Positions 6,731 through 39,314 of a DNA stretch of 64,000 bases are shown here, one piece after another. Made by a program: the position numbers and the translations under genes. The notes below the pieces were generated by a model. The model was not told the origin of the DNA. It was given only the letters and a program-made list of their open reading frames with translations, and did no database searches. The DNA is taken from the IMG/VR virus record IMGVR_UViG_3300042286_000208, positions 70,287-134,286 of that record; one strand, 5' to 3'. Every line of letters begins with the position of its first letter. Positions within the stretch are counted from its first letter, which is position 1. This DNA is from a virus. Lineage: Duplodnaviria > Heunggongvirae > Uroviricota > Caudoviricetes.

Positions 6731-9382
6731 ATGAAAATAACAAAACTTTATTTAAAGAATTTCAGTAGAGTTAAATCAGCTTTGGGTGTTGATGAAGTGA
6801 CTATAGATTTGACATCGGCTCAAAGCTTATTTCTATTCCTTAAAGGAGGAAATGGCTCGGGTAAGTCAACTCTTTTAAATCAAATGCATCCTTGGAGAGA
6901 CTCTTATGATGGGAACGGATCACAAACTTATGATGAAGCCGTAAAAGAAGTAACAATTCATCACGAAAATGGTGAATATTTAATCAGACATCAATATGGT
7001 AAAGTATCTAAAACATTTGTTTATAAAAATGGAGATCTTTTAAATTCTAATGGTAATACTAGAGCAGCAGAGGATCTTATAAATAACGAATTAGGATATA
7101 CGCCAGAATTCTTAGAACTATCAAGAATATCATCAAGTATGTCAGGATTTCTAGACAAAAAATCAACAGAGAGAAAAAAATTTATTACATCTTTAATGCC
7201 TTCTATTGATTTCTATATAAATGCTTTCGATAAAGTAAAAGCAAGAATTCTTGAAGAAAATAAAAAACTAAGATCTATTGAGGCAGAGATTGCAAAATTA
7301 GATTCATTTAGTGAAGAAGACTTAACGTTACAAAAAGAAAATGTTACTAAAACAAACAAATCAATAGAGGAACTGTCTAATAAAATAGCAGTGGCTAATG
7401 CGAAGCTAGACGAAATGCAAAAAAACCTAAAAGAATTAGTATTTGTATCCGACTTGGATATAAATAAACAAAGTGAAAAAATAAATTCTTTCGGTGAAAG
7501 TCTAGTTAAATTTATTGATGTTTATGGCAAGAAATCCATAGCATTAGCAAAAGAAGAACTTGATTTAGTTAAAGAAACTCTAATTAAAACAAGAGTAAAT
7601 ATCACAAACCTAGAATCCAAATTAAAATCAACAAACGAAAAAATAGGGTCCATTAATAACTCTATTGCTGAAGATGAAACATTCTTATCTAAGTTAAGTT
7701 CAGTTGATATAAAATCTATAGAAGACAGTATTAGTAAATATGAAAACATTATAAATTCTATAGATGTAGAGGATACGTATTATAAATATGTATTAAATAA
7801 AGAAGTTACAACAACAGAGTTAATGGGGTTGGAAAACTTTATACAATACACTGTAAATACTAAGAGTATATTAGGTAAACTGTATAAGGAGATATCTTCA
7901 ATTGGTATTATCAATATTCAAAACAAAGAGACAGAGCTTAAAAACAAACTTATTCCTCTTGGAACAGAGATAAAAGCACTTGAGAAAAGCATAAACGAAG
8001 ACTCCCTACATTATAATGAGTTTATGAAATCACAACACGGAAACAAAAAACATTGTGATGATCCAAACTGTCCTTATGAAAAAGAAGTCCAAGAATATGA
8101 AAAGTTAGGGTCTGTTATTGAACAAAATAATTTAAAATTAAGAGATCTCAACAAACAATTAGAGGATTTAAAAGATGAGATATCTGATGTCTCTTTAACT
8201 AAATCAAAAGCTGAAGAGTGGCTAACACTAAAAAGAAAATATTCAACAAATACTTTTGAAATATTTACAAAACACTATGATTTTTACGAGAGTGATGACT
8301 TAATTTCCGATTATAAGAAATTTTACTCAGATATAACAAATGCTATTGAAGATTCATCCCTTCTAATAACATCAACCAAGAGCTTAGCTGATGCTAAAAA
8401 AAGCTTAGACGAATCCAAAGATAGAATATCCTTGGTAGATAATATAAATACAAAGATAGCAAATCAAAAGGAAGAATTAGAGACTTTAAAAGGCGATGTT
8501 ATAACATTAAAATTTGATATTGAACAAGATAAAACAAAAGAAACAGAAACAGAAAAAGCTGTTCAGATGTATAATGATTTTATTGCAGCTAAAGAAGGTT
8601 TAAAGTTAGCCATTGAAGAAAAAACTAAAATGGAAGAAGATCAAAAGAAATGGAACGATATTTCAGAGGAAATCAAAAGAATGGGTGACGAAATTTCAGA
8701 AATGAGAACTAGAAAATCTAAAGAAGAGTCTGATTTATCGACATATTCAAACAATGTTAAACAACTAGAAAGACTTAAAATTAATAAAGAAATTTTAGAC
8801 GGAAACCTAGAGACAATTAGAAATAACTTGAATACATATTCACCAATAAATAACGCTTTGGATCCAAAGAAAGGTATTCCTGTTGTATTTCAAAGAGTTT
8901 ATTTAAAACAAACGGCGTTTCTTGTAAACAAACTTCTTAGAGTTGCTTACGGTGAAAAATTTGAAATTAGTTTTGAATTAACTGATAATGATTTTTTCAT
9001 TAGAGTTGTTGATAGTGAAGGAAATGTTCGTGATGATGCAAGATCTCTATCGGATGGTGAAAAATCAGTTGTTGGTTTAAGCTTAAGTCTTGCTTTAATT
9101 GAACAAACAGGAAATCGAGACAAGATACTTTATCTTGATGAAGCAGATGGTGTATTAGACAGCAAGAACAGAAGATCTTTCATTAATATTCTTGAAAATC
9201 AATTAGTTCTTCTTGGTATTGAACAGTGTATTATTATTTCTCATAATGATTCATTTAAAGATACTGAGGCTGATGTAATTTTATTAAAAGACGAAGATGC
9301 CGATGAAAGTCATATTGAACAAACAAAAGCATTTTTAGAAAACAAAAAAGTGATTTTTGATTACAAGAAATTGCTAGAATAA
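6731..9382 (+). CDS. sbcC: SbcC/Rad50-family ATPase (T4 gp46-like)
   Basis: Walker A GGNGSGKST, long coiled-coil middle with zinc-hook-like CDDPNCP, signature LSDGEKS, Walker B ILYLDEAD, H-loop IIISHND. Confidence 0.8.
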   Translation: MKITKLYLKNFSRVKSALGVDEVTIDLTSAQSLFLFLKGGNGSGKSTLLNQMHPWRDSYDGNGSQTYDEAVKEVTIHHENGEYLIRHQYGKVSKTFVYKNGDLLNSNGNTRAAEDLINNELGYTPEFLELSRISSSMSGFLDKKSTERKKFITSLMPSIDFYINAFDKVKARILEENKKLRSIEAEIAKLDSFSEEDLTLQKENVTKTNKSIEELSNKIAVANAKLDEMQKNLKELVFVSDLDINKQSEKINSFGESLVKFIDVYGKKSIALAKEELDLVKETLIKTRVNITNLESKLKSTNEKIGSINNSIAEDETFLSKLSSVDIKSIEDSISKYENIINSIDVEDTYYKYVLNKEVTTTELMGLENFIQYTVNTKSILGKLYKEISSIGIINIQNKETELKNKLIPLGTEIKALEKSINEDSLHYNEFMKSQHGNKKHCDDPNCPYEKEVQEYEKLGSVIEQNNLKLRDLNKQLEDLKDEISDVSLTKSKAEEWLTLKRKYSTNTFEIFTKHYDFYESDDLISDYKKFYSDITNAIEDSSLLITSTKSLADAKKSLDESKDRISLVDNINTKIANQKEELETLKGDVITLKFDIEQDKTKETETEKAVQMYNDFIAAKEGLKLAIEEKTKMEEDQKKWNDISEEIKRMGDEISEMRTRKSKEESDLSTYSNNVKQLERLKINKEILDGNLETIRNNLNTYSPINNALDPKKGIPVVFQRVYLKQTAFLVNKLLRVAYGEKFEISFELTDNDFFIRVVDSEGNVRDDARSLSDGEKSVVGLSLSLALIEQTGNRDKILYLDEADGVLDSKNRRSFINILENQLVLLGIEQCIIISHNDSFKDTEADVILLKDEDADESHIEQTKAFLENKKVIFDYKKLLE

Positions 9383-23453: not shown

Positions 23454-23462
23454 TTAATTATA
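23447..23462 (+). promoter_or_regulatory. motif TGAATAATTAATTATA, copy 3
   Basis: Exact 16-mer overlapping stop of 23151-23453; 24 nt before ATG 23487. Confidence 0.55.
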
Positions 23463-23486
23463 AAATATACCGAGGAGGTGTTGATT

Positions 23487-25100
23487 ATGCAAGTAGAAGC
23501 TAATAAAGAATTTGTGTTCCTAAACCAACATGTTGGAACTTTCTATACTGGTATAAGTTCCATATTAGGACAGGTGAAGGAATATATACTAAATCAATTT
23601 CCTCAGGAGTTTTTTAAGAGAGTTACAGTAGAAACTGCAGCACCATCTTCACTTACAAATCAGAATATGCAAGATGGTTTAGTAAAAATGTATTATCCTT
23701 TTTTAAATATTGGGGTAAACATTCCTCATGAATATGAAGAAAAAACAACAAGACCTTTATTAGAACGTTCTGAATTATTTATACAGCCTCTTATAAGACA
23801 AAATTACCCAAGAGTCTTGATTGACCCAGATGATAATTTTACTGTAGGTTTTACATATGAATGAGTAAAATCTTCTTATGATTTCAGAATAACGACAAAT
23901 ACCTTTATGAACTCCATAGATGTGATGAACTGAATAAGAACTAAACTTCCACTAAATTTCATAGGATATTTAAATGATTCTCCTTTGGAGTTTGAATTAC
24001 CTCAGAGTATTGTTAAAACAATAGCAGAGCTTCAGGGATATGATTTAATGACAAAGGAAGGTGTTAAAAATCTTGATAGATATTTAATGTCTGTAGGTAG
24101 GATGTTTTCCTTAATTAAAAGAAAAACAAGTGCTACATCAGGTCAAGAGTCCTATTTCATGTCTATAAATTCAGACATTCAAGTATATATAGACAATCTA
24201 GATGCTCCGACTTCAGTTGTTAGAAGTGGTCACACCGAGGGCGAGTATGTTGTAAGTTTTACTGTTACAACAGGAGCATATTTTCCTGTTAGCTATTTAA
24301 TGAAAATAAGAAAAGATTATTTAGTTGCTAGAGTAGAACAAAAAGACTTTCTGGATATCTATGATACACCTAATCAACCACTTGTTGATGGACTGATTTC
24401 AATAGGTGTGGATATTCCTTTAGCGAACAAGAAAGATATTATAAACTACACTACATCGGATGGGAAAAAAGCAATAGGCCACTTGGTTGATGAATGAAGA
24501 TTCGTATACGGGTCCGAACAAACAGAACCACCTATTGTTTCAATCTTCAGCTTAATCGATGATCCAGAATTAAAAAGAGTTCATGCTTATGCAGTAGAAC
24601 ATAGTATTAATCTAGAAAATCTTTTTCATTTTGAAGGATATAAGGTGGCATACACCCAAGATGATATCAATTTTGTCATGAACTATGAAGATTTTGAAAT
24701 CAATATAGAAAACGCTGAATTTAGTGAGGTTTTGATAAGGTTCTATGTAAATAGAGCAACCTATGATGCACTTCAGTTTGCTATGGAGACAGATACTTAT
24801 TACTTTAATAAGAACGTACTGTGTTTCACAGATGTTATTTTATGGGACAGTAAGACAAACATGAATGTCACTAAGAAAGTACAAGTTAATTTCTTTAAAG
24901 ACTCGATTGAAATGTACGATGAAAACCCATTGAAAGCTCTTAAGATCGTAACAAAATATGGTTATGGATATCTCAATATCAAGCCATATGTTGAAGATCC
25001 AGACAGAGAAGATGATGTGATGTTAGTGGTTCTTGGTTATGAGAGCAAGTTGATAGATGGGAAACCTGTTCCAATACTTTATGAAATAATTTTCTCATAA
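23487..25100 (+). CDS. hypothetical 537-aa protein; 3 in-frame TGA (23862, 23931, 24495); possibly virion structural
   Basis: Listed ORFs 23478, 23985 and 24645 share one frame; intervening sequence re-translated with no TAA/TAG. Confidence 0.45.
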
Positions 25101-27587: not shown

Positions 27588-29546
27588 GTGATTGAAGTTT
27601 TGTACAATAAATATCAAAAAACGAAGGCAGTAAAAGAGCCCTTCAATAAAGAACTATTGTATATTAGAGATGACTATCAGATTTATACGCTGTTAGACTC
27701 TATATTTAAACAGTACGAAAATGATCCTAGAGTAATAGAAGTAAGAACCTACTGGGAAGACGATGAGCCAATGAAGCAATATCGTACTAGAAGCAGACGT
27801 GTTGAAAAAACAAACATTAATGTTTTTAGATATGAGATTGATATTTGGATTGTCAAAGAAGATACTACTGAAGATATAAAAAATAAAGCTTTAGCTAAAT
27901 CTCGCAGACGTAAAAAATCTGAGAAAAATAAAGAATATGTTTTCAGAAAAGTATTTGATAGACATAGTAATATTAAAATAAAATATGATGAGTCAAAGTA
28001 TAAAAAGTATACCGTATATGGCAAACTATTCATGCCTAAACTTGTAAATAATCTGTTCTATTTGATTGAAGGAAGTAGATATTTCACAAGAATGCAGATT
28101 GTGGATAAAATTGTTTATCCTGTTGACCAAAATCATAATAAGAAAATTAAAGCTGTAAATTACAAAAACGAAAGATCTGGTGAAAGAAGCCTATCTTTAA
28201 CAACTCGGTTGCCAAAAATGCAACTAAGTATGTCAAATAGTTTAATTTATGAATTTACGGATATGGATACTGATGAGGCATACTTCGCACCATACTTCAA
28301 CTTATTATTATTTAATAAGAATCAAAATATAATTCAAATATTATTAACTATGTACGCATTCAATATGATAGTTGAAGAGTTTGGGTTAAATGAACCAACT
28401 AGCAATATTTCTATAACCGACGTATACGATGATGAGAATAGACTCATATCAAGAGGACATAGAAACTTAAGAGATACATATGACTCAATGCTACAGGAAT
28501 TAAATACATTCCTTGGAACAAACGTGGTTGTTACAGATGAGGATTATAGTGTAGAGGGTTATCTAAATCTCAGACTGCAATATAAAGAATTTCTTGGACC
28601 TTATGTTAAAGTAGAGAAAGAAGAATTTGAGAACAATGTATTAACTAAAACATTGATATCAGGTCTTCAAAAAATGTTTGAGTCTTATTGTGAGATATTA
28701 ACTTTCAGAGAAACAGACAACTTAAACAAAATGGATAAGAGAAGTCTTGAAGAATTAGGTGGTTCAAAAATTACTGTCAAGGAATTAGAAAACAGTAGAA
28801 TTGATGAGGTTGGTTTTAAATATCATACAATAGACGAGCAAAAAGTCGTTCTAAATGAAGACATCTTTAGAAATCCAGCCTTATTAGTCCATATGTTTGG
28901 TGGAATTATTTTCAAGAAGAATGACTATGTTGAAAGATTGAATAGAACCTTCTTGATGTTCTTATCTATGGAAAGATTAAATGATGAGAACTTGCTAGAC
29001 GAATATGTTATTGACAAGGATGAAGATCCTAATTTAATGACATTTCTTAAATTCTTAATTGTGAACTTTAATGAAATTAAAAAGAGCAATACAAGCAATC
29101 TTTATAATAAGAGAATCAGGGTTTCTGAGAATGTCATCGCACCTATTCGTGTTTTAACATCTCAGGTCTTATTCGCTTTAGTTAAAGAAAATTATTTAGA
29201 TTATGACAGAGTTAGACAGATATTTAATCCTGTTGTAAGTAATAAGAACATGCTAATTAAAGATATTCTTAAAAATGACTTGATTCTATACGACAACAGT
29301 ACTAATGACTCTATAACAAACCATTTTACTTCATTGAAATATACTTTAGCTGGTAACGGTGGGTTGAATTCTAAGAGAATTCCATTCAAATATCGAAGAA
29401 TTGATCCTTCTTATCTGGGCAACTTGTCGCTGGTTAGTTCTAGTGCAACAAATCCAGGTATCACTGGAACAATCATTCCTTTTGCTAAAATAATACTCAA
29501 TGAAAAAACAAGCTCGTTTGAATTTCATCGTTCAAACAATAACTAA
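27588..29546 (+). CDS. multisubunit RNAP beta subunit, N-terminal fragment
   Basis: MPKLVNNLFYLIEGSRYFTRMQIV ~ beta [25 protein letters not shown]; C-terminal YLGNLSLVSSSATNPGITGTIIPFAKI ~ HYGRVCPIETPEGPNIGLI; true TAA stop. Confidence 0.7.
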   Translation: MIEVLYNKYQKTKAVKEPFNKELLYIRDDYQIYTLLDSIFKQYENDPRVIEVRTYWEDDEPMKQYRTRSRRVEKTNINVFRYEIDIWIVKEDTTEDIKNKALAKSRRRKKSEKNKEYVFRKVFDRHSNIKIKYDESKYKKYTVYGKLFMPKLVNNLFYLIEGSRYFTRMQIVDKIVYPVDQNHNKKIKAVNYKNERSGERSLSLTTRLPKMQLSMSNSLIYEFTDMDTDEAYFAPYFNLLLFNKNQNIIQILLTMYAFNMIVEEFGLNEPTSNISITDVYDDENRLISRGHRNLRDTYDSMLQELNTFLGTNVVVTDEDYSVEGYLNLRLQYKEFLGPYVKVEKEEFENNVLTKTLISGLQKMFESYCEILTFRETDNLNKMDKRSLEELGGSKITVKELENSRIDEVGFKYHTIDEQKVVLNEDIFRNPALLVHMFGGIIFKKNDYVERLNRTFLMFLSMERLNDENLLDEYVIDKDEDPNLMTFLKFLIVNFNEIKKSNTSNLYNKRIRVSENVIAPIRVLTSQVLFALVKENYLDYDRVRQIFNPVVSNKNMLIKDILKNDLILYDNSTNDSITNHFTSLKYTLAGNGGLNSKRIPFKYRRIDPSYLGNLSLVSSSATNPGITGTIIPFAKIILNEKTSSFEFHRSNNN

Positions 29547-29610
29547 TGCTTTAAAAAAATTATATATTATAAAACAGTAGTAATAGTCAATTATAATCTG
29601 ATGTATTACT

Positions 29611-29638
29611 TGAAAGAGCCGCTTTTTCTCTGGCTCTT
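29611..29638 (+). other. hairpin aaagagcc-(11 nt)-ggctcttt immediately upstream of the tRNA
   Basis: 8-bp inverted repeat between RNAP beta-N stop and tRNA. Confidence 0.35.
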
Positions 29639-29645
29639 TACTGTT

Positions 29646-29722
29646 GGACCCTTAGCTCAGTTGGTCAGAGCTCCCGGCTCATAACCGGGTGGTCGAAGGT
29701 TCGAGCCCTTCAGGGTCCACCA
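29646..29722 (+). tRNA. tRNA with anticodon CAT (Met, fMet or Ile2), CCA encoded
   Basis: Acceptor stem ggaccct/agggtcc, D-arm agctcagttggtcagagc, anticodon stem cccgg/ccggg with loop ctCATaa, T-arm gaagg-ttcgagc-ccttc, discriminator a, CCA. Confidence 0.85.
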
Positions 29723-30175
29723 TGAATAATATCAATAATCCTGTAGCCGTACACTACAGAGGACACGTTGCCTGACTAGCGTCCACAGGTTAGCAAGTAT
29801 AAGAGGATGTAGGGCTGGAGCGCATAAGTAGGCCACTTTGTTAGTCGCTCAAAACGGAAGATATCGGGTTTTACCCTAGAGCTCTTCGAGTATAAGAAAC
29901 GTAGATTGTTGGTATTATTGATGGTATTATTAATCATCAAGGTTTTAATCCTGGTCTATCAGGTTAAAATAAGGCGAATAGCCTTCATAGCGTGCACCTC
30001 CTCTAAATATAGCCGCCACAATAAATAGAATGAGTGGTGGCTAACTTATTAAAATCAAATATGTTAAATAGAACCGTTACTTACTTCATTCTTACAGTAA
30101 AAGGATCAGGTGTTGCTGGGAAACCAGTAACCTGAAATATTAGTACGGTCAATATAATAAAAAGACTAGTTAATA
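29723..30175 (-). ncRNA. GC-richer structured non-coding region (3' part of the intron-like element, or an independent RNA)
   Basis: No ORF over 57 aa on either strand even allowing TGA; about 42% GC versus about 28% in neighbours; many short stems. Confidence 0.35.
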
Positions 30176-31099
30176 CTAGTCTTTTTTTATTTCTTTTTTT
30201 AGAATGTTTTCTATGTTTTTAAATTCTGTATATGGTATTCTGATAAGTTTTATATTATTATCTTTACAATATTTTGTTTTTATAGAGTCTTTTATTTTTT
30301 GTTTTTTTAGTTTATTAATTGCTTTTTTTTCATCATTAAACACCCATGGTTTATAATGTTGCATTCCATCATATTCTATACATGTGTTACTTTTAGGTAA
30401 ATAAAAATCAAATCTTAAAAGCTCTTTATTCTTACATTCATCAAATGTATATTCTTCTATATAAGATATATGTTTACTTTCTAAATATGATTTTACTTTT
30501 AACTCACCTTTAGAATTCCTACAAGAGGGACATCCCCCACCACGTAAATGATTGTCTGGAGTTGTATTTCAGGGACCGTGTTTACTACATATTATTTTAA
30601 CTTTTGTCCGAGCGTTTATATAATCAACTTTTGAATAGTCATATTTATTTCCATGAATTTTAATAGCTTTTTCTACAAATTCATCAGTAGATGGTTTTTT
30701 AACATTAGAACATTCAGGACAACCATGTCCTCCTAAGTGTGAATTTGGAGATTGAAGAAAATCACCATGCTCATTACATGTAATTATTACTTTTTCTACT
30801 GCTTTTTTGTATATTGTTTTAGAGTAATCATATTTATTATTATGTATAATATTAGATTTTTCTATAAAATCATTTGTGTTTAATGTTCTTTTTTTAGATC
30901 TAGATTTTAAACTACATTTAGGACAGCCATGACCCTTTAAATGAACTGATGCTCTTTGATAAAACTCTCCATGTTCTGGGCAAATAATCAATATTTCTTT
31001 ATGATATGTTGTTATTTCAGATTTAGAATAGTCATACTTATCATTGTGTATTTCTTTAAATTTGTTGATATAAAAAGAGGTATCATGTTTTTTTGGCAT
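30176..31099 (-). CDS. homing-endonuclease-like protein: three tandem Cys-His zinc-ribbon repeats plus C-terminal Vsr/DUF559-like PD-(D/E)XK nuclease; in-frame TGA at 30569
   Basis: Repeat NKYDYSK-x-Y...IIC.EHG.F...HL.GHGCP.CS occurs three times; C-terminal LRFDFYLPKSNTCIEYDGMQHY fits DUF559/Vsr core; RBS aaaggagg; listed ORFs 30569-31099 and 30176-30364 join across TGA. Confidence 0.55.
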
Positions 31100-31269
31100 A
31101 TAATACCTCCTTTCATCTAGCTGTTATCTTTGTTATCTCTTATTTCTCCTATTTTTCGACCTAATTCAATTAGTAATTTGTTTGTGAACATTAAATAAAA
31201 TATATCCCGATATTATTGAACAGGTTCTCACACCCGTCTGATTTATACTAAAGATAAACCATTTCTTAT

Positions 31270-31499
31270 ACTTTCATATAAGCGTAGACTATATCATCAT
31301 CTCTTTCGAGAGCAGCTTACTTCGGGAAATGAGATTTCTTTCCCTACTCCCTTACGGGATAGTCGTTGGGGCTGGAACTTAGAAAGATCCCTGCCTGCTG
31401 ATTGCCCAATCTCTCAACTTTTCAAACCATGGCTTCGACTCACGTCTCGCAGTGGTATGAGAGCTCTAAGGGGTTTCCAGCATATCAAGCTGTTTTAAC
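31270..31499 (-). ncRNA. group I intron-like catalytic core (P4/P7 elements) on the minus strand
   Basis: Minus-strand CAACGACUAU (plus 31359-31368) matches R element GUUCAACGACUA; GAUAUAGUC (plus 31287-31295) matches S element AAGAUAUAGUCC; the GACUA/UAGUC halves pair as P7; CAAUCAGCAGG (plus 31390-31404) resembles Q element AAUCCGCAGC. Confidence 0.5.
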
Positions 31500-34400
31500 C
31501 TATAATCTCACAATTATAGGGCACTGTTTTAATCGTCAATGCGTCATTCTGGAAAACACACCGGTAGGTGTTAACACAGATTCAATTTCTTCATTAGGTC
31601 TATATTCAGAGTATGGGGCTTCTTTATCATCTAAAACATTAGATATTACACCCTTTAAAGCAGTATCATAACTTAATTTATCACCGATACCAAGAGGAAC
31701 GTTTGATTGAATATAATATTTAATCATTACGCCTTCATAACCTTCGCCATCTTCTTTTGCAGTTAAGCTCTGTTTCTCAGGTCGTTTTTGTTTTAGAAGG
31801 TATGAATTATTTTCCCCAACAAATTTCAATTTCTTTTCATATTTTCCACCGAAATCATTTATTAATTTTACAAGTGAAGGGTTTAAGTCTTCCTTATCAA
31901 CATTATAGAACACTTCTATTTCTTTAATTACCCCGTGGTAGTTAGGATATTTTGTAGATGATGGAAGAATATCTTCAACATCACCATATTTATCTGTGAA
32001 GCTATTTGTTAAGAATCCTTCAATACTGTTATCACCGAAATCGTCATATTCTATAACAGGAGTCGTTTCGTCAACATGATCGCCTATTTTGCTCATACTC
32101 TTAATCTTAGTTGTAGGTGTTAATCTTACCATTTCTGCAATTACAACTCTACTCATGCTCTTCTTACTTAGATTTTTGGTTATTATGGTACTATCTTCGA
32201 AAGAGTTATCTATAGGCGCAATTGCCATTTTAGCTAAGGTACCAACAAGCAACTCAACTTTTCCGTCATCAAATGCCTTAAAGAATACATCATTATAGGC
32301 GATGATATCGTCTTTTTTAAACATGTCTTTTTCTCTTAGTCTCATAATCAGCTTATTAGGTGTGTAGAACGCATTGGCGGAGTTTCTTATAAATGTAGTT
32401 GATAGATCGATGAAATCTTTGGTTCCATCTAAATACTCTAATTCAACTATGTTTGTATCCCTGTTAAAGGTTTTTACAACACCATCTTTTTTTGCTTTAA
32501 ATATGAAATCACTACTTAGAAGGCCTGGAACCACTTGTTCAGCTCCTGTGCTCCATAGTCTAACAGAACCTTTATTAAGAGGCATGTTATGTTTAAATTG
32601 TCCAATTGTCATGGATTGTCTTGATGCATCAGCATGTCTTGATAAGAATGGAGAAAGTAATTCGGAAGCAGATAACATTCTAGTATCTGGTGTATTTTCA
32701 ATGTCTTCTATCTCAGAAATATAACCTCTGATACCTTTAATATGTGGTTGATATGTAAGAGATCTGGTAATACCTGATGATCCACCAAAAGCAGTAGCAC
32801 CAGCAGAATATACAGAAAGTTTATTATTATTAAACTCACGCGTAGCTTGTGAGAATGATGCAGCTTTTTCAAGACCCATGAACCCTTTTTGAGAGGTTCT
32901 GGAATATGTCTCAAGTTCCAACACAGGACTTAATGCAGAATAAGTATTTACAGAAGATATCTTAAGAAGATTGAATATAACAGCATTTTCATTTACATCA
33001 AATGTGTTTCTAGTATTCCCTCTAAGATATCCATTCAGATAATCAATATAGGATTTTATTAGTATTTGATTTAGCATACCTGCTATTTGTTCATAGTTTC
33101 GTAATCTGTAGTTTAATACATTACCAAGCTGTCTATAGCTATTATCTGCTAAAAGAGTATTACAATATAATAGTAAATCTAGAATATTACTTGGTATTTT
33201 TTGTTCGTGTAGTATTTCTTGAGTTATCGGATCGACTAAAACGTTTAGTGTTATCTTCATTGTGTTCTTAAAGTGGGTTTTAGTAGATGTAGATATTTTT
33301 TTAATTAAACCTATTCATTCATCATAAGGTTCTGATGTATTGAAGGAACTTAGGTTAAAGTCATGAGGCTTAGCAAAATATAAACCATTCATAAGAACTT
33401 GATTTTCTATAGTTTCTTTGTAATATAGGTATACGTCTTTGAACTTAATTTCAACATATCCTGGTCTAGGATCTCTATCTTTTGATATTGTGTATGCTAT
33501 TTTATATCTATTCATTGTATTTTTCAAACCATATATCATACCAAGAATAAGAATTAGCGGATAATGAGACCCAGCTATTTTAACTTTACTATATCCCATC
33601 TTATTACCAGTATCAGGAAGATCCTCGAATCTTGTATCATAGATATCCCTATACAAGAATTCAGATAAAGTTTCACTGATAAGTGTGTCCGTCTTATAGT
33701 CTGTCGAGTATACTTTATGTTTGTAAATGAATAAAAGTCTATTGGATCCATCAATAAGTTTGTATCCTATTGGTATAAGATCTTCAGGATATTTCCAATA
33801 TTTTGTAGGAACATCGTTTAATTTTAATTCAGTTGAAATATCATCATAGTTAAAGTTTAATGAGTATCCATTTTTTTCTATAGAGTATATGTTTTTACAA
33901 ACTTCACTATATTCTATATTCTTGATGTTGTTTTCTGAATATGATATTAGATTATCCCCATATTTAACCTTTACTTTTGGATCATTCTTTTTGTTATCTA
34001 TTAGTTTTAATACTTGACTTATAGTTTTAGACAAATAACCCTTTTCTCTATCAATAAATAGAATAGAGTAGTTTGTTGTTATTTTGACTGAATCTGGTGC
34101 AGTTTTGGTCACTGGCAAGAAAGCTAATTGATTGTCTACTGTTCATCTGTTACCATTCAAATAAAGGAAATGATTGTCGATTATTTTTGGAATATTAACG
34201 CTGAATCTTATATCTTTATTAGTACCATTGATATTTACTGTGTAAGCCAAATTTAATTTATAGAGTTGATTGTTTGCATTTGAGGTATCCTCAAAATCAA
34301 TCTTCTTCATAGTTAAAGGTAGAATAGAGTTGTTAGATAAACTAGATGTTATATTAATTATATCATCTTTAAATTGTTTATCTATATATTCTTTTGAAAG

Positions 34401-35651
34401 TATTGCGATTGGGGTGTGTGATAATTCTTTTAGTCTTATATCATTAGCAGCTCTTTGATCTATTTGTTCTTCTATAGATGAGTATTTTTCTACATCTACT
34501 TCTGGTAATTTTTTGAATTCATTATATAGAATTTCCATTTCTTCAGCTACATTTTCTTCTGCCTTTAATATGTTTTGTGACTCTTTTTTCTTAAGACCAG
34601 CATATCTTGTAAGATTGGCCTTTATGGTTGGATCCTCTATCAGTTTATCAACTTCAATTTGACCACTGTCTTCTCTTCTCTTTATGTTCTCTACGATGGA
34701 TAAATATATATTGTCTTGTGGATCAGTATTCGGTTCCACTTCAACGTTTTTAATTTTATTCACTTCATAGAATTTTTTAACTACCTCTTCGAATTTAGTT
34801 TCTACAACAATATCTTTAGAATCAAGGGTTTTATCATTGATTGCATCTTCTTCGCTATACACTTCATCTTGTGAAAGAGGCTCTTGTCCTTTACCGCCAA
34901 GCTTGTATAACTTAAAAAGTCTTTGCATATGTTTGCTTTTTAGTTCATTTATGTCAATGTTATCTAGATCAAATTTAATCATAGAGTGAACTTTAGTGTT
35001 ATAAAAAACAACATATTTTATACCTCTGAAGAAGGCTTCTCTTGTTCCTTCGTCATAATTTCAAAAAGCTTTTGTTATTATTGTCGCAGGATCTACTAAG
35101 AATTCTGTATCACCAACAAAACTTCTTTTTCTTACAAGAATGTGGAAATTGTCTACAGACCCATCATAAGGAACAACCAATATATTGTTTAAATACCCTG
35201 CGTTTTCTATAGATTCTTTTAGCATAGTGAAAAGATATTGAGAGATATACTGTGTTGATCTTGGATTTTCTCCTCTTAATTTCTCTACTAATTCTATAGT
35301 CTGTCTTCACTCATTATTAAAATCATATATAAGGTTTTTATTGCTATATGCCAATATATTTTTACGACCTAAATTTATTTTCTTATTTGTTTTTGAGAAT
35401 ATGTCGTTATAATATTCTTTTAGAGGAATAACAACACGTCTTCTTTTCATAGGAGTAATTCTGAATGGTGTATAAATAGATTTGATATTAGCTCCTCTTA
35501 AAAGTTTAGAATTGATAACATCAATCATAGTTTGCTCTTTTAAGCTAGGTATTAAAATCAAATTGTCCTTATTTTTGTTTTGTGTTTCGAAAAATATAGT
35601 CGGATTCTTATAAACAAGACCATTTCTCGCTTTTGAAAGTTTTAAAATCAT
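31500..35651 (-). CDS. multisubunit RNAP beta subunit (second copy, N-terminal plus middle regions, about 1383 aa); 5 in-frame TGA
   Basis: Listed ORFs 35307, 34143, 33315 and 31536 are one frame joined by TGA at 35307, 35061, 34143, 33315 and 31536; motifs IPKIIDNHFLYLNGNR(W)TVDNQ ~ NGTERVIVSQL; DASRQSMTIGQFKHNMPL ~ NDANRALMGSNMQRQAVPL; APIDNSFEDSTII ~ NGYNFEDAI; IGDKLSYDTALKGVISNVL...VLTPTGVFSRMTH ~ GDKMAGRHGNKGVISKI...VLNPLGVPSRM; ends 12 codons later at TAG 31500 with no C-terminal 250 aa. Confidence 0.7.
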
Positions 35652-35672
35652 AGCCGTCACCTACCTATCTCT

Positions 35673-36328: not shown

Positions 36329-36359
36329 ACGGAAATTGCTGAAAGAGGGGTGACTTATC

Positions 36360-39314
36360 ATGAAATATAGATTACCTGGTATTTATCTTGGAAATATATC
36401 TATGGATTTATTCATGGAATATATGTCTAATGAAGAATTGAGCAATCAGACAATCACTAATGATTATTATCAAACAAATAATAGAACTCAAAATGTTAAA
36501 GTATTTAAAGTAGAATTCACTTATAATTCAGTGGATTATAATTTTTATACTTATAATATTCTTGATACAGTAAATATTAGAGAAATAATAAGAACTTATT
36601 TTAGAGATATAATTAGTGACACGCCAGACTATGATCAAAATGTAGATGCTATAACTTTTACAGTTCAGACTGCTGATTTTATAGAGAATCCTGTTTTGTT
36701 CGACACACTGGGACAACCATCTATTTATAGTACTTATATGATAAACGACATCGGTGAATATAAATATATGATATCTGTTGAAGGTGAGTTGAATGAAGAC
36801 CTTAACAATTACACCGATCTAAAACAATATGTTGACTCTTCAGAACTAGAATTAGTTCCTGTAAATATATATGATCTCAGATACGCAACAAAAGATTTAA
36901 TAACAACACTTTACGTTGATAAAGATGTTTTTAACGAATCATCTGTTAATTTAATGGAGTTCGTGCTAGATGTTAACGAAGAAATTCAAGAGGTAAAGGA
37001 AAACGTTCTTTATTTTGGTCGAAAAAGTCTACTTAACTACATAGGGGCTGACGGCCTATTTTATTTTAAAGATAAGTTGGGAGGACTTACGAAGTCTCCT
37101 TATAAAAATGTGATGATGTGGGATATCGAAAATAATAGGAATCTACTAGATCAATCAATACAAATAAAGATGCTCTCTCCTGAAAATTCTAGAAATTTCA
37201 GTGGCATCACTGGTGTTGTAAGAACACAGACGGAAAATAACGATAAAGTAGAATTAAACTTTACTAAATATGATAAGTATAGTATAACTAAACAATTTAA
37301 AGAGGTATCTAGCATACCTGGTGGCGAAGAGGATATTAGATTTGAAGATATTGAGCCAAAAATAATAAATACTATAGAGAATGCAGTAAACCAAACACAT
37401 GTTTTTAATGAAAAAAGCATGATAGTATATACTGATTTAGTAAATACATCAACCCTACCCAAATTTAAAGCTATATATAATTGAAATGTTAATGGTGATA
37501 AGAAATACTATATTTTTGATACAATAAGAGGTAGAGTTCCAGAGTTTAGAAATACCGAATTGGATTCTGATAGTCCCACTTTATGTTTATTAGATGTGTA
37601 CCCAAATCCAAAAATTAAAGTAGAATCAATTGGTTCTAGTAAAAATCATAGATTGATTTATGATGTGCACTATGATTCAGAAAGATATGAACATTTTGTT
37701 TTTAGAACTGTCGTTTTTGATAATAAAACATATTACATAAAACTAGCTGATAGTGAAAATGAATTGACTGGTTATATAATAATGACATCCAACACACCAA
37801 ATGCGACTTATACAACATCAGAAGATTTAATTAATGATTTTTCTTTTTCGGAAATGGGTTTAAATGTTGGTTTGAATGACGTTTATCCCCTTTCTTATGA
37901 CAAGATAAATGGTATTGATACCGTTGTAAAATGAGGGCTGGATATTCAGATAACTCCCGAAGAAAAATTCTCAACAGAACTTAAAAAAATAGAAAACGGT
38001 TCAAATGAGATGTTCTATACATTTATGGATCAAAGCACTCTGGATGGAAAGTTATATTTTAAATTCCCTGTAAAACTAGATATTAATAGTACAGAAAAAA
38101 TAGATAACGTCATGGTTACTATGAGAGCAAAAAAGGTAATATCAGCCAATGATTATGAGTTTGAATCATCTGGCTATTGAACAACAACTTTTACAAGTGA
38201 CTATCTTATAACAATACCCGTGTTCTCAGAGTATAACACAGAAGATACGAAACCATACAATAATATATCTCAACATCTAACTCTGAATAATTTTGAGTGA
38301 GTCGTCTCTGATGAAAATTATTCCAAAAAGTACTATGTTATAAACAAATATGACCAAAGCAAAATATATGAGGTTACTGAAATATTAAGTCATGAAAATT
38401 CTCCTCTGAACCCTTATCCTTACAACAACACATTTTCCAAAATAAACAGCAAACTGAGCACAGGCATAAACGAAAACAACACAAATGAATTTGTTGCGAG
38501 ATTAGGTACTAGCATAACAGTAGATGATCGCGGTGAATTGGTTAACTCTGATATAATGGGAACTGACTTAATAGAAGCACTAACGGATGACTTCAAGAGG
38601 GGCTTCAATAATATATTTTACGGAATAGGAAATTATACCTATAACTACACCCTAGATGAACTAGATGATAAACAAAAGACAAGTTTCCTAAGAGATTCTT
38701 TGGTAAATTTTGATAGTTTGAATAAAATGTTAACAGCTTTCCTGAGATATAATTTCATATCTACAAACGATTATCTATATACAATAGATAAAGACTTTAG
38801 AATGGGATTCTTTACTAAAAAAGAAGACAGAGGAATAAGCTCAAACAATATATTCACAAATTGATTAGCTGCAGTTCCTTTGGGGGAAGTTGACGCTGAT
38901 AACTTCAATACATTACAAAAGATTAAAGAGTACGAAAAATTAACATCAGATGAAGATATATCTAAAAGAGAGAGAATTAACTGAATCAAAAATCACCTAC
39001 TTTACAGCAGAGATAAAAATACAACAACAGGATATGCTTTACAAAGAACAAAAACAACAAATCTAAAAGATATTAACAATAAAGACACGGTTGAACAAGC
39101 ATTTTCAATGTTGATGGATCAGAGATATAATGTGACTAAAGTTATTGGATCTTTTTCGAACACAAACATAAGCAATCTTGTTATAATGGATACAAAAGAG
39201 AAGGATCTTTTTTCAGGATCTCATGAACAAGTAAGATTTATTAACTCAAACCAGAAAATAGACGTCATGGTAAACACTTATTTGGATGGTTTTGTTAAAA
39301 AGGTAGGTGAGTAA
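36360..39314 (+). CDS. large hypothetical protein (984 aa, 6 in-frame TGA); candidate virion structural protein
   Basis: Listed ORFs 36360, 37560, 38538 and 39108 share frame 0; junctions re-translated with TGA at 37482, 37932, 38178, 38298, 38862 and 38982 and no TAA/TAG. Confidence 0.5.

Follow-up and report, generated by a model that had tools for sequence, protein, structure and literature searches.

The window, the whole 64,000-nucleotide (nt) stretch analysed here, comes from an uncultured phage (positions 70,287 to 134,286 of IMG/VR record IMGVR_UViG_3300042286_000208) and is phage-like DNA with a G+C content of 30.7%. It carries two convergent genes for beta-like fragments of a multisubunit RNA polymerase, gene A on the minus strand and gene B (27588-29546) on the plus strand. 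Gene A is composed of exon 1 (31539..35660), a 332-nt group I intron of IA type that contains no open reading frame (ORF) (31207..31538), and a short exon 2 (31117..31206). A free-standing gene for a 307-amino-acid (aa) homing endonuclease follows on the same strand (30176..31099). Beyond a bidirectional terminator-like hairpin (30159..30186), two intergenic modules (29941..30088 and 29724..29940) lead to a tRNA-Met gene (29646..29722) and the end of gene B. We hold with high confidence to the explanation as a whole: an ORF-less IA intron is spliced out of gene A, the adjoining endonuclease is free-standing and likely acts in homing in trans, and the roughly 450 nt beyond it are unrelated to the intron.

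The reading of this locus depends on the genetic code. When TGA is translated as Trp, the summed length of the long ORFs in the window rises from 14,068 to 16,677 aa, and three or four minus-strand ORFs merge into a single one of 1386 codons (31503-35660). To judge from these reading frames, TGA specifies an amino acid in this phage, most likely Trp (genetic code 4). The gut 'Jug' jumbo phages were rejected as the source of the window, since their genetic code is the standard one. No suppressor tRNA gene is present in the window, where tRNA-Met is the sole tRNA. Sense TGA codons are seen, for example, in 31503-35660 (minus strand), at 30569-30571, and in 36330-39311 and 23454-25097 (both plus strand).

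Exon 1 of gene A was delimited as a code-4 ORF and identified by Pfam and by alignment with RpoB. It comprises 1374 codons, four of them in-frame TGA, and its product ends in ...LTPTGVFSRMTH. Pfam RNA_pol_Rpb2_6 matches the C-terminal part over profile positions 141-269 of 373 only, and the bacterial RpoB motifs GDKxxxRHGNKG and LNPLGVPSRMN align with it. By these similarities gene A is the gene for a beta-like subunit of a jumbo-phage-type multisubunit RNA polymerase. Its homologue in the related contig L009 is predicted to be an uninterrupted protein of 1398 aa. Gene A stops 29 residues past the SRM motif. A six-frame motif search of the window for the rest of the beta subunit (Rpb2_6 positions 270-373, Rpb2_7, and the GEME and HAR..G motifs) returned nothing relevant; as far as this motif search goes, the missing C-terminal part must be encoded outside the window or be highly divergent. 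Gene B matches the beta-N subunit of the non-virion RNA polymerase of Bacillus phage AR9 (PDB 7s00 chain c, E=5.5e-19). Among cultured phages the AR9/PBS1-like jumbo phages come closest, with a protein identity of about 30%.

The ends of the intron are defined by alleles that lack it. Related contigs were obtained through homologues of gene B, and in eight of them (L001-L004, L009, L010, L012 and L017) gene A has no intron. In blastn and MAFFT alignments with L001-L004, similarity breaks at 31539/31540 and resumes at 31206 in L004. The junction is identical in L009, L010, L012 and L017, and the alleles of L004, L009 and L012 are contiguous across it. The segment precisely missing from the intron-less alleles is 31538-31207: exon 1 ends in CAU, the intron runs from UGA to UCGG, and exon 2 begins with GAU. 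The junction cannot slide, as exon 1 ends and the intron starts with U, the intron ends and exon 2 starts with G, and the joined CAT and GAT are conserved. The last base of exon 1, U31539, forms a U.G pair in P1, and the omega-G is G31207. The intron thereby interrupts the equivalent of the PSRMN motif, between FSRMTH and DIF, 29 codons before the stop of gene A. The TGA that the earlier note had taken for the stop codon of the beta gene is the first three bases of the intron.

Exon 2 sits directly after the ribozyme and before the endonuclease ORF. It was recognised from the C-termini of homologous proteins and from the intron-less alleles, and consists of 29 codons, DIFYLMFTNKLLIELGRKIGEIRDNKDNS, followed by a TAG stop at 31119-31117. 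Homologues of the C-terminal 593 aa of gene A were found at 86-92% identity (P0001-P0003) and at 33% (P0006). Past ...SRMTH these proteins add about 27-29 residues, DIFYLMFTNKLL.ELG..I..IRD..., and then end. Splicing in trans, or to a 3' exon far away, was also weighed and was set aside, given that the homologous proteins end 29 residues past the junction. Over the first 24 codons of exon 2, comparison with six relatives finds 10-14 codons that differ synonymously and 1-5 that differ non-synonymously, and by these counts exon 2 is under purifying selection. Exon 2 is therefore translated, which in turn would require splicing. Removal of the intron restores the reading frame of gene A and would give a protein of 1403 aa, in which the predicted junction joins ...AUGACGCAU to GAUAUAUUUU. 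With TGA as a Trp codon, translation of unspliced RNA would continue through 12 extra codons into an aberrant tail that stops at TAG 31505-31503, and the product made without exon 2 would instead end ...RMTHWRLKQCPIIVRL.

The catalytic core was recognised in the earlier note from its conserved elements. On the minus strand they come immediately past the beta-like ORF: R CAACGACUAU (31368-31359), S GAUAUAGUC (~31295-31287) and Q AAUCAGCAGG (~31404-31395). With a search space of 451 nt (31150-31600), the full length (1-253) of the Rfam model RF00028 (Intron_gpI) matches 31550..31265 of the minus strand. The score is 60.4 bits (E=5e-15), where the gathering score is 50. The intron was not reported when Rfam was run on the whole 64-kb window or on 2.3 kb, even at E<=10. 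As the narrow search does match, and three homologous phage introns score 82-93 bits, we take these negatives to be an artefact of the speed filters. Other introns of this AT-rich window could likewise escape Rfam scans with a large search space. The intron DNA matches 488 phage records, with 72-82% identity in the core. Among them are Pseudomonas phage Pa_WF01, where an annotated Intron_gpI interrupts an RNA polymerase gene, and Acinetobacter phage Herod, whose RNR-beta gene contains an intron.

Folded by minimum free energy together with a few exon bases, the intron shows every expected helix except P7. On the minus strand the predicted helices are P1 (31542-31537 / 31526-31521, GCAUUG/CAGUGC), P2 (31520-31513 / 31506-31499), P3 (31492-31487 / 31318-31313), P4 (31481-31477 / 31401-31397), P5 (31473-31470 / 31408-31405) with P5a, P6 (31395-31388 / 31377-31370), P7.1 (31358-31356 / 31351-31349), P7.2 (31344-31339 / 31329-31324), P8 (31311-31308 / 31303-31300), P9 (31282-31277 / 31270-31265), P9.1 (31260-31254 / 31246-31240) and P9.2 (31237-31232 / 31225-31220). 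P7 is the expected pseudoknot (31364-31359 / 31292-31287, GACUAU/AUAGUC), within which lies the GACUA/UAGUC pairing noticed earlier. In an RNAalifold consensus of five related introns, 25 of the 57 consensus pairs show compensatory changes, located in P3, P5a, P5b, P6, P8 and P9. P4 and P7 are invariant and therefore carry no covariation information. The P7.1 and P7.2 hairpins (31358-31349 and 31344-31324) are an insert relative to the Rfam consensus. By the predicted presence of these two extra helices between the 5' strand of P7 and the 3' strand of P3, the intron is of subgroup IA.

The 307-aa endonuclease gene was annotated with Pfam, PHROG, AlphaFold2 and Foldseek. It has a Shine-Dalgarno sequence, AAGGAGG, at 31112-31106, and its start lies 17 nt past the stop codon of gene A and 107 nt from the intron insertion site. 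An in-frame TGA (30571-30569) aligns with the conserved W of '...HGEFWQTP...' in homologues. The ORF and ribosome-binding site described in the earlier note thus exist, with the qualification that the length of 307 aa holds only if TGA is read as Trp. Pfam DUF4379 matches the protein three times, corresponding to three treble-clef zinc-finger modules. PHROG families 559, 9084 and 7140 (endonuclease, homing endonuclease and intron-encoded nuclease) match it as well, and its homologues number more than 8000. Because sequence and profile searches of PDB gave only marginal matches, to T7 endonuclease I, a fold search was needed. An alignment-based AlphaFold2 model of the C-terminal 122 residues reached a pLDDT of 90, and its top match in Foldseek PDB is 3r3p_B, the catalytic domain of I-Bth0305I (E=7e-4, Foldseek probability 1.00), followed by Vsr (1cw0) with a query-normalised TM-score of 0.66. 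In an alignment of 29 homologues E14, D46, E57, G60, H63 and D86 (nuclease-domain numbering) are invariant. The model points to a Vsr-like PD-(D/E)XK fold of the EDxHD (I-Bth0305I-type) family. A tblastn search with code 4 found no second copy of the endonuclease in the window.

The position of the endonuclease gene identifies it as a free-standing insertion, since it is placed between the stop of gene A and a homologous terminator hairpin. A terminator scan located this bidirectional hairpin, with a 12-bp stem, at 30159..30186. In L004 and L001 hairpins at the homologous position directly follow the gene A stop; their stem sequences differ. The endonuclease gene itself is missing between genes A and B in L001-L004. 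Lying upstream of the gene A terminator, it would share a transcript with gene A, and its translation would start from a Shine-Dalgarno sequence of its own.

Intron and endonuclease vary among the relatives of the window. The window has the gene A intron, the 307-aa minus-strand endonuclease between genes A and B, and no intron in gene B. L001-L004 have neither intron nor an endonuclease at this place, with L004 being uninformative for gene B. Three contigs have an endonuclease between genes A and B on the minus strand and no intron in either gene: L009 and L010 with 374 aa, and L017 with 379 aa. L018 has no endonuclease between the genes and no gene B intron; its gene A intron is inserted 7 nt upstream of the site in the window, following AGAAU, ending in G and continuing into GACACAC. 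L016 has a gene A intron at the -7 or -6 site, inside which the contig ends, coupled with a convergently oriented endonuclease gene (388 aa, plus strand), and has no gene B intron. L012 lacks the gene A intron. It has an intron of 310 nt (7359-7668) in gene B, located in a conserved motif between ...ATNPGI and TGT..., 28 codons from the stop, and a free-standing endonuclease gene of 240 aa (7827-8549, plus strand) downstream of gene B, after its terminator-like hairpin. In L011, L013 and L014 the gene B intron is present and the contig ends inside it; the gene A intron and the endonuclease position are out of view. All four states, neither element, endonuclease only, intron only and both, are thus found among the relatives. 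The endonucleases of the window and its relatives are paralogues with 45-54% mutual identity. A further paralogue of this zinc-finger/Vsr-like type is encoded upstream of a glycosyltransferase gene in L009 (774-1880) and L011 (1-333).

The introns at the three insertion sites are adapted to different exons. Each P1 guide is complementary to the 5' exon of its own gene and forms a U.G pair at the splice site; the pairings are GCAU/GUGC (window), GGAAUU/AGGUUCC (L012) and GUAGAAU/AGUUCUAC (L018). The core of the L012 intron is 88% identical to that of the window, which is roughly equal to the genome-wide divergence of the two phages, and its P1-P2 differs from that of the window intron and is complementary to the gene B exon. 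At two of the three sites (gene A of the window and gene B of L012) an ORF-less intron 28-29 codons from the gene end has an endonuclease gene just downstream.

In the mechanism that we propose, the pre-mRNA would fold into P1 to P9.2 and an external guanosine would attack after U31539. The freed exon 1 would then attack after the omega-G31207 and join CAU to GAU, yielding the mRNA for the 1403-aa protein. In a mixed infection the endonuclease would cut alleles that have neither intron nor endonuclease gene, at or near the insertion site between CAT and GAT. Repair from the donor would copy the intron, exon 2 and the endonuclease gene together (about 1.4 kb), and the donor itself would be shielded, since its intron splits the target. 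Such trans, or collaborative, homing fits the recurrent geometry, as an intron within 30 codons of the gene end adjoins the endonuclease, and it fits the precedents described below. Taken by itself, trans homing may be the mechanism of mobility with about equal weight for and against.

A number of observations weigh against this explanation. Splicing is something we infer, and cleavage something we propose, from DNA sequence. Inspection by eye found no convincing P10 pairing, and pseudopalindromes, expected for a dimeric EDxHD enzyme, do not occur above chance at the insertion sites. L018 has the intron, 7 nt upstream, and no endonuclease, and L009, L010 and L017 have an endonuclease between genes A and B and no intron. 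As the endonucleases are paralogues of limited identity, the intergenic region may be a mere hotspot for insertion. The comparison extends over only about a dozen related contigs; scans found no relatives in the viral contig collection and one distant locus only in metagenomes. The weak P10, together with an Rfam score of 60 bits against 82-93 for the related introns, could suggest that the intron is a decayed, non-splicing remnant and that the polymerase subunit works without its last 29 residues. We consider such decay, which had been suggested in the earlier note as a degenerate intron, quite improbable: the core helices are intact and covarying, the U and omega-G boundaries are preserved, exon 2 keeps an open frame under purifying selection, and unspliced RNA would add the aberrant 12-residue tail. 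More improbable still, to the point of near dismissal, is the model of the earlier note, in which a single long sunY-type intron would take in both the endonuclease ORF and the 450 nt, or the two would form part of a ribozyme for processing or capping the endonuclease mRNA, with the 3' exon missing or tiny near the tRNA. The ORF does follow the ribozyme core on the same strand, and the region downstream is structured. The 29 codons directly after G31207, however, reproduce the conserved C-terminus, the intron-less alleles join exactly at 31539/31206, and the ORF begins only past the 3' splice site (31207) and exon 2. Behind the endonuclease gene stands a terminator hairpin. Conservation of the 450 nt extends to L004, L012, L001, L009, L015 and L019, irrespective of the presence of intron or endonuclease; as they are kept in relatives lacking both, they lie outside the intron. 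A second intron core was found neither in the window nor in 29765-29870, where a weaker R/S-like pair had been suspected, and Rfam returned no GIR1 at E<=10. The start of the endonuclease mRNA is not inside the intron, and only 107 nt, comprising exon 2 and the Shine-Dalgarno sequence, separate intron and ORF, which leaves no twin-ribozyme layout. What stands of the earlier note is its observation that a group I core lies where an rpoB-like gene has its 3' end, beside a homing-endonuclease-like gene, borne out by the RF00028 match and by the PHROG and fold matches, and, among its interpretations, a real intron with a tiny 3' exon, though that exon lies upstream of the endonuclease ORF and not after it. 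Among the checks that it proposed, the Rfam Intron_gpI score above threshold, the P3-P9 fold, the omega-G and the intron-less alleles all support an intron. Its observation is in this sense partly confirmed and its interpretation partly supported.

A closer rival concerns mobility. Intron and endonuclease might be independent selfish elements, with the space between genes A and B serving as a landing pad, the endonucleases cutting elsewhere (in an intergenic region or another gene) and the intron spreading or persisting alone. All four combinations of presence and absence occur among the relatives, the A-B intergenic region of different relatives contains no fewer than four divergent paralogues of the endonuclease, in both orientations, and L009 has another endonuclease copy elsewhere in its genome. 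On the other hand, both fully resolved pairs share the unusual geometry of an intron 28-29 codons from the stop and an endonuclease just downstream, such proximity is a requirement of co-conversion, and cleavage beside intron insertion sites is known for EDxHD enzymes (PMC3239194). We regard this independence as a serious contender, toward which we lean a little less than halfway. A further reading would be that one intron family has been retargeted, with P1-P2 exchanged and the P3-P9 core kept at about 88% identity, to three sites in two convergent beta-fragment genes, each within 30 codons of the end of a split gene and beside a hotspot of free-standing EDxHD endonuclease genes. This reading is speculative and we think it rather unlikely.

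The layout of an ORF-less intron with an adjoining free-standing endonuclease is already known from other phages, and the present locus is a further example. Collaborative homing has been described for the psbA intron of cyanophage S-PM2 with the free-standing F-CphI (Zeng, Bonocora and Shub 2009) and for the DNA-polymerase intron of T7-like phages with a neighbouring endonuclease (Bonocora and Shub 2009; both reviewed in PMC3984707). As in these pairs (PMC3984707), the free-standing endonuclease adjoins the gene that carries the ORF-less intron, and both are polymorphic among relatives. The differences are that F-CphI has an Endo VII-type motif whereas the endonuclease of the window is of the EDxHD / Vsr-like family, that the host gene here encodes a beta-like RNA polymerase subunit, that cleavage at the insertion site is here a proposal, and that the relatives include intron-only and endonuclease-only states.

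The prototype of the EDxHD homing endonucleases is I-Bth0305I, from the recA intron of Bacillus phage 0305phi8-36 (PDB 3R3P), which cuts next to its own intron insertion site (PMC3239194). It is the best structural match of the nuclease domain described here, and like the window endonuclease it is a phage-borne, group I intron-associated, multidomain protein with a DNA-binding part at the N-terminus. The I-Bth0305I gene lies within its intron, whereas the window endonuclease is free-standing, has an N-terminal part made of three treble-clef zinc-finger (DUF4379/DUF723) repeats, and shares about 20% sequence identity with it. Another comparison is with the gp210 intron of the nucleus-forming jumbo phage PhiPA3, located in the gene for a virion RNA polymerase subunit, where an intron endonuclease targets the RNA polymerase gene of a jumbo phage (PMC11620839). 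Both are group I introns associated with a homing endonuclease, and both interrupt a conserved motif in a jumbo-phage gene for a multisubunit RNA polymerase. By analogy this likeness suggests a role in the competition between co-infecting relatives. gp210 differs in being an HNH nickase encoded within the intron and in belonging to another phage lineage; the pair in the window is known from its sequence. The IA introns of T4 td, nrdB and nrdD (sunY) share with the window intron the P/Q/R/S core, P7.1/P7.2, a stop codon at the intron start and a location in a conserved motif of an essential gene. They differ in that the window intron has no ORF in any loop and that its neighbouring endonuclease ORF follows exon 2, which is not the sunY layout.

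For annotation, these results imply that the beta-like subunit should be recorded as the 1403-aa product predicted after splicing and not as the truncated ORF, and the endonuclease as a separate gene. To the known pairs of ORF-less intron and adjacent free-standing endonuclease they add one of the EDxHD family, located at an RNA polymerase gene in an uncultured phage for which TGA stands for Trp. The small natural series of presence and absence among the relatives could be used to test collaborative homing and interference between phages. Whole-contig Rfam scans can miss introns in AT-rich phage genomes, owing to their speed filters. If the endonucleases do cut at the three sites, several stages of the assembly of a mobile intron would be present in a single lineage. 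The split sites of jumbo-phage RNA polymerase genes have been hypothesised to be shaped by intron and endonuclease activity (quoted in PMC7598289), and this idea would then gain concrete support.

The region between the endonuclease gene and gene B is a separate subject. The tRNA-Met (CAU) gene at 29646..29722 on the plus strand was found by ARAGORN and scores 71 bits with Rfam. G+C content is 40-50% in 29600-29999, against 30.7% overall, and the region is structured. The earlier note was right about this character of the roughly 450 nt; what it treated as RNA attached to the endonuclease ORF is an independent intergenic element, found in relatives that have neither intron nor endonuclease. 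L004, one of these, is 83% identical to 30092-29653. The 450-nt region folds better on the plus strand (z = -3.0 versus -1.75). It matches no Rfam family and nothing in the phage database, the equivalent region of L002 likewise matches no Rfam family, and a search of the viral contig collection with a DNA pattern taken from the intergenic module gave no match.

Two modules can be distinguished in these 450 nt. Module 2 (29941..30088), delimited with nhmmer, alignment and covariation, is found by nhmmer in eight related loci, including loci without intron or endonuclease. It contains two covarying hairpins. Among its hairpins is CCACCAC-N14-GTGGTGG. On its minus strand an invariant Shine-Dalgarno sequence and ATG precede an ORF of 4-16 codons that varies in sequence; on inspection this short ORF itself folds as a hairpin in most relatives. 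The short ORF and the module both end in an invariant hairpin, TTTAATCTGATAGACCAGAnTTAAA, that includes TAA, TGA and TAG and provides stops in all frames. Module 1 (29724..29940) is 217 nt long with a G+C content of about 45%, starts exactly at the 3' end of the tRNA-Met, and is closed by an imperfect inverted repeat of 16 nt, AATAATATCAATAATC / GATTGTTGGTATTATT. Being present in only three of the related loci (the window, L004 and L012), it resembles an insertion or an accessory RNA. The content of the tRNA-adjacent region differs among relatives: in L002 (2296-3030) and L003 (2182-2916) a tRNA-Leu(UAA) and about 570 nt of unassigned sequence take the place of modules 1 and 2.

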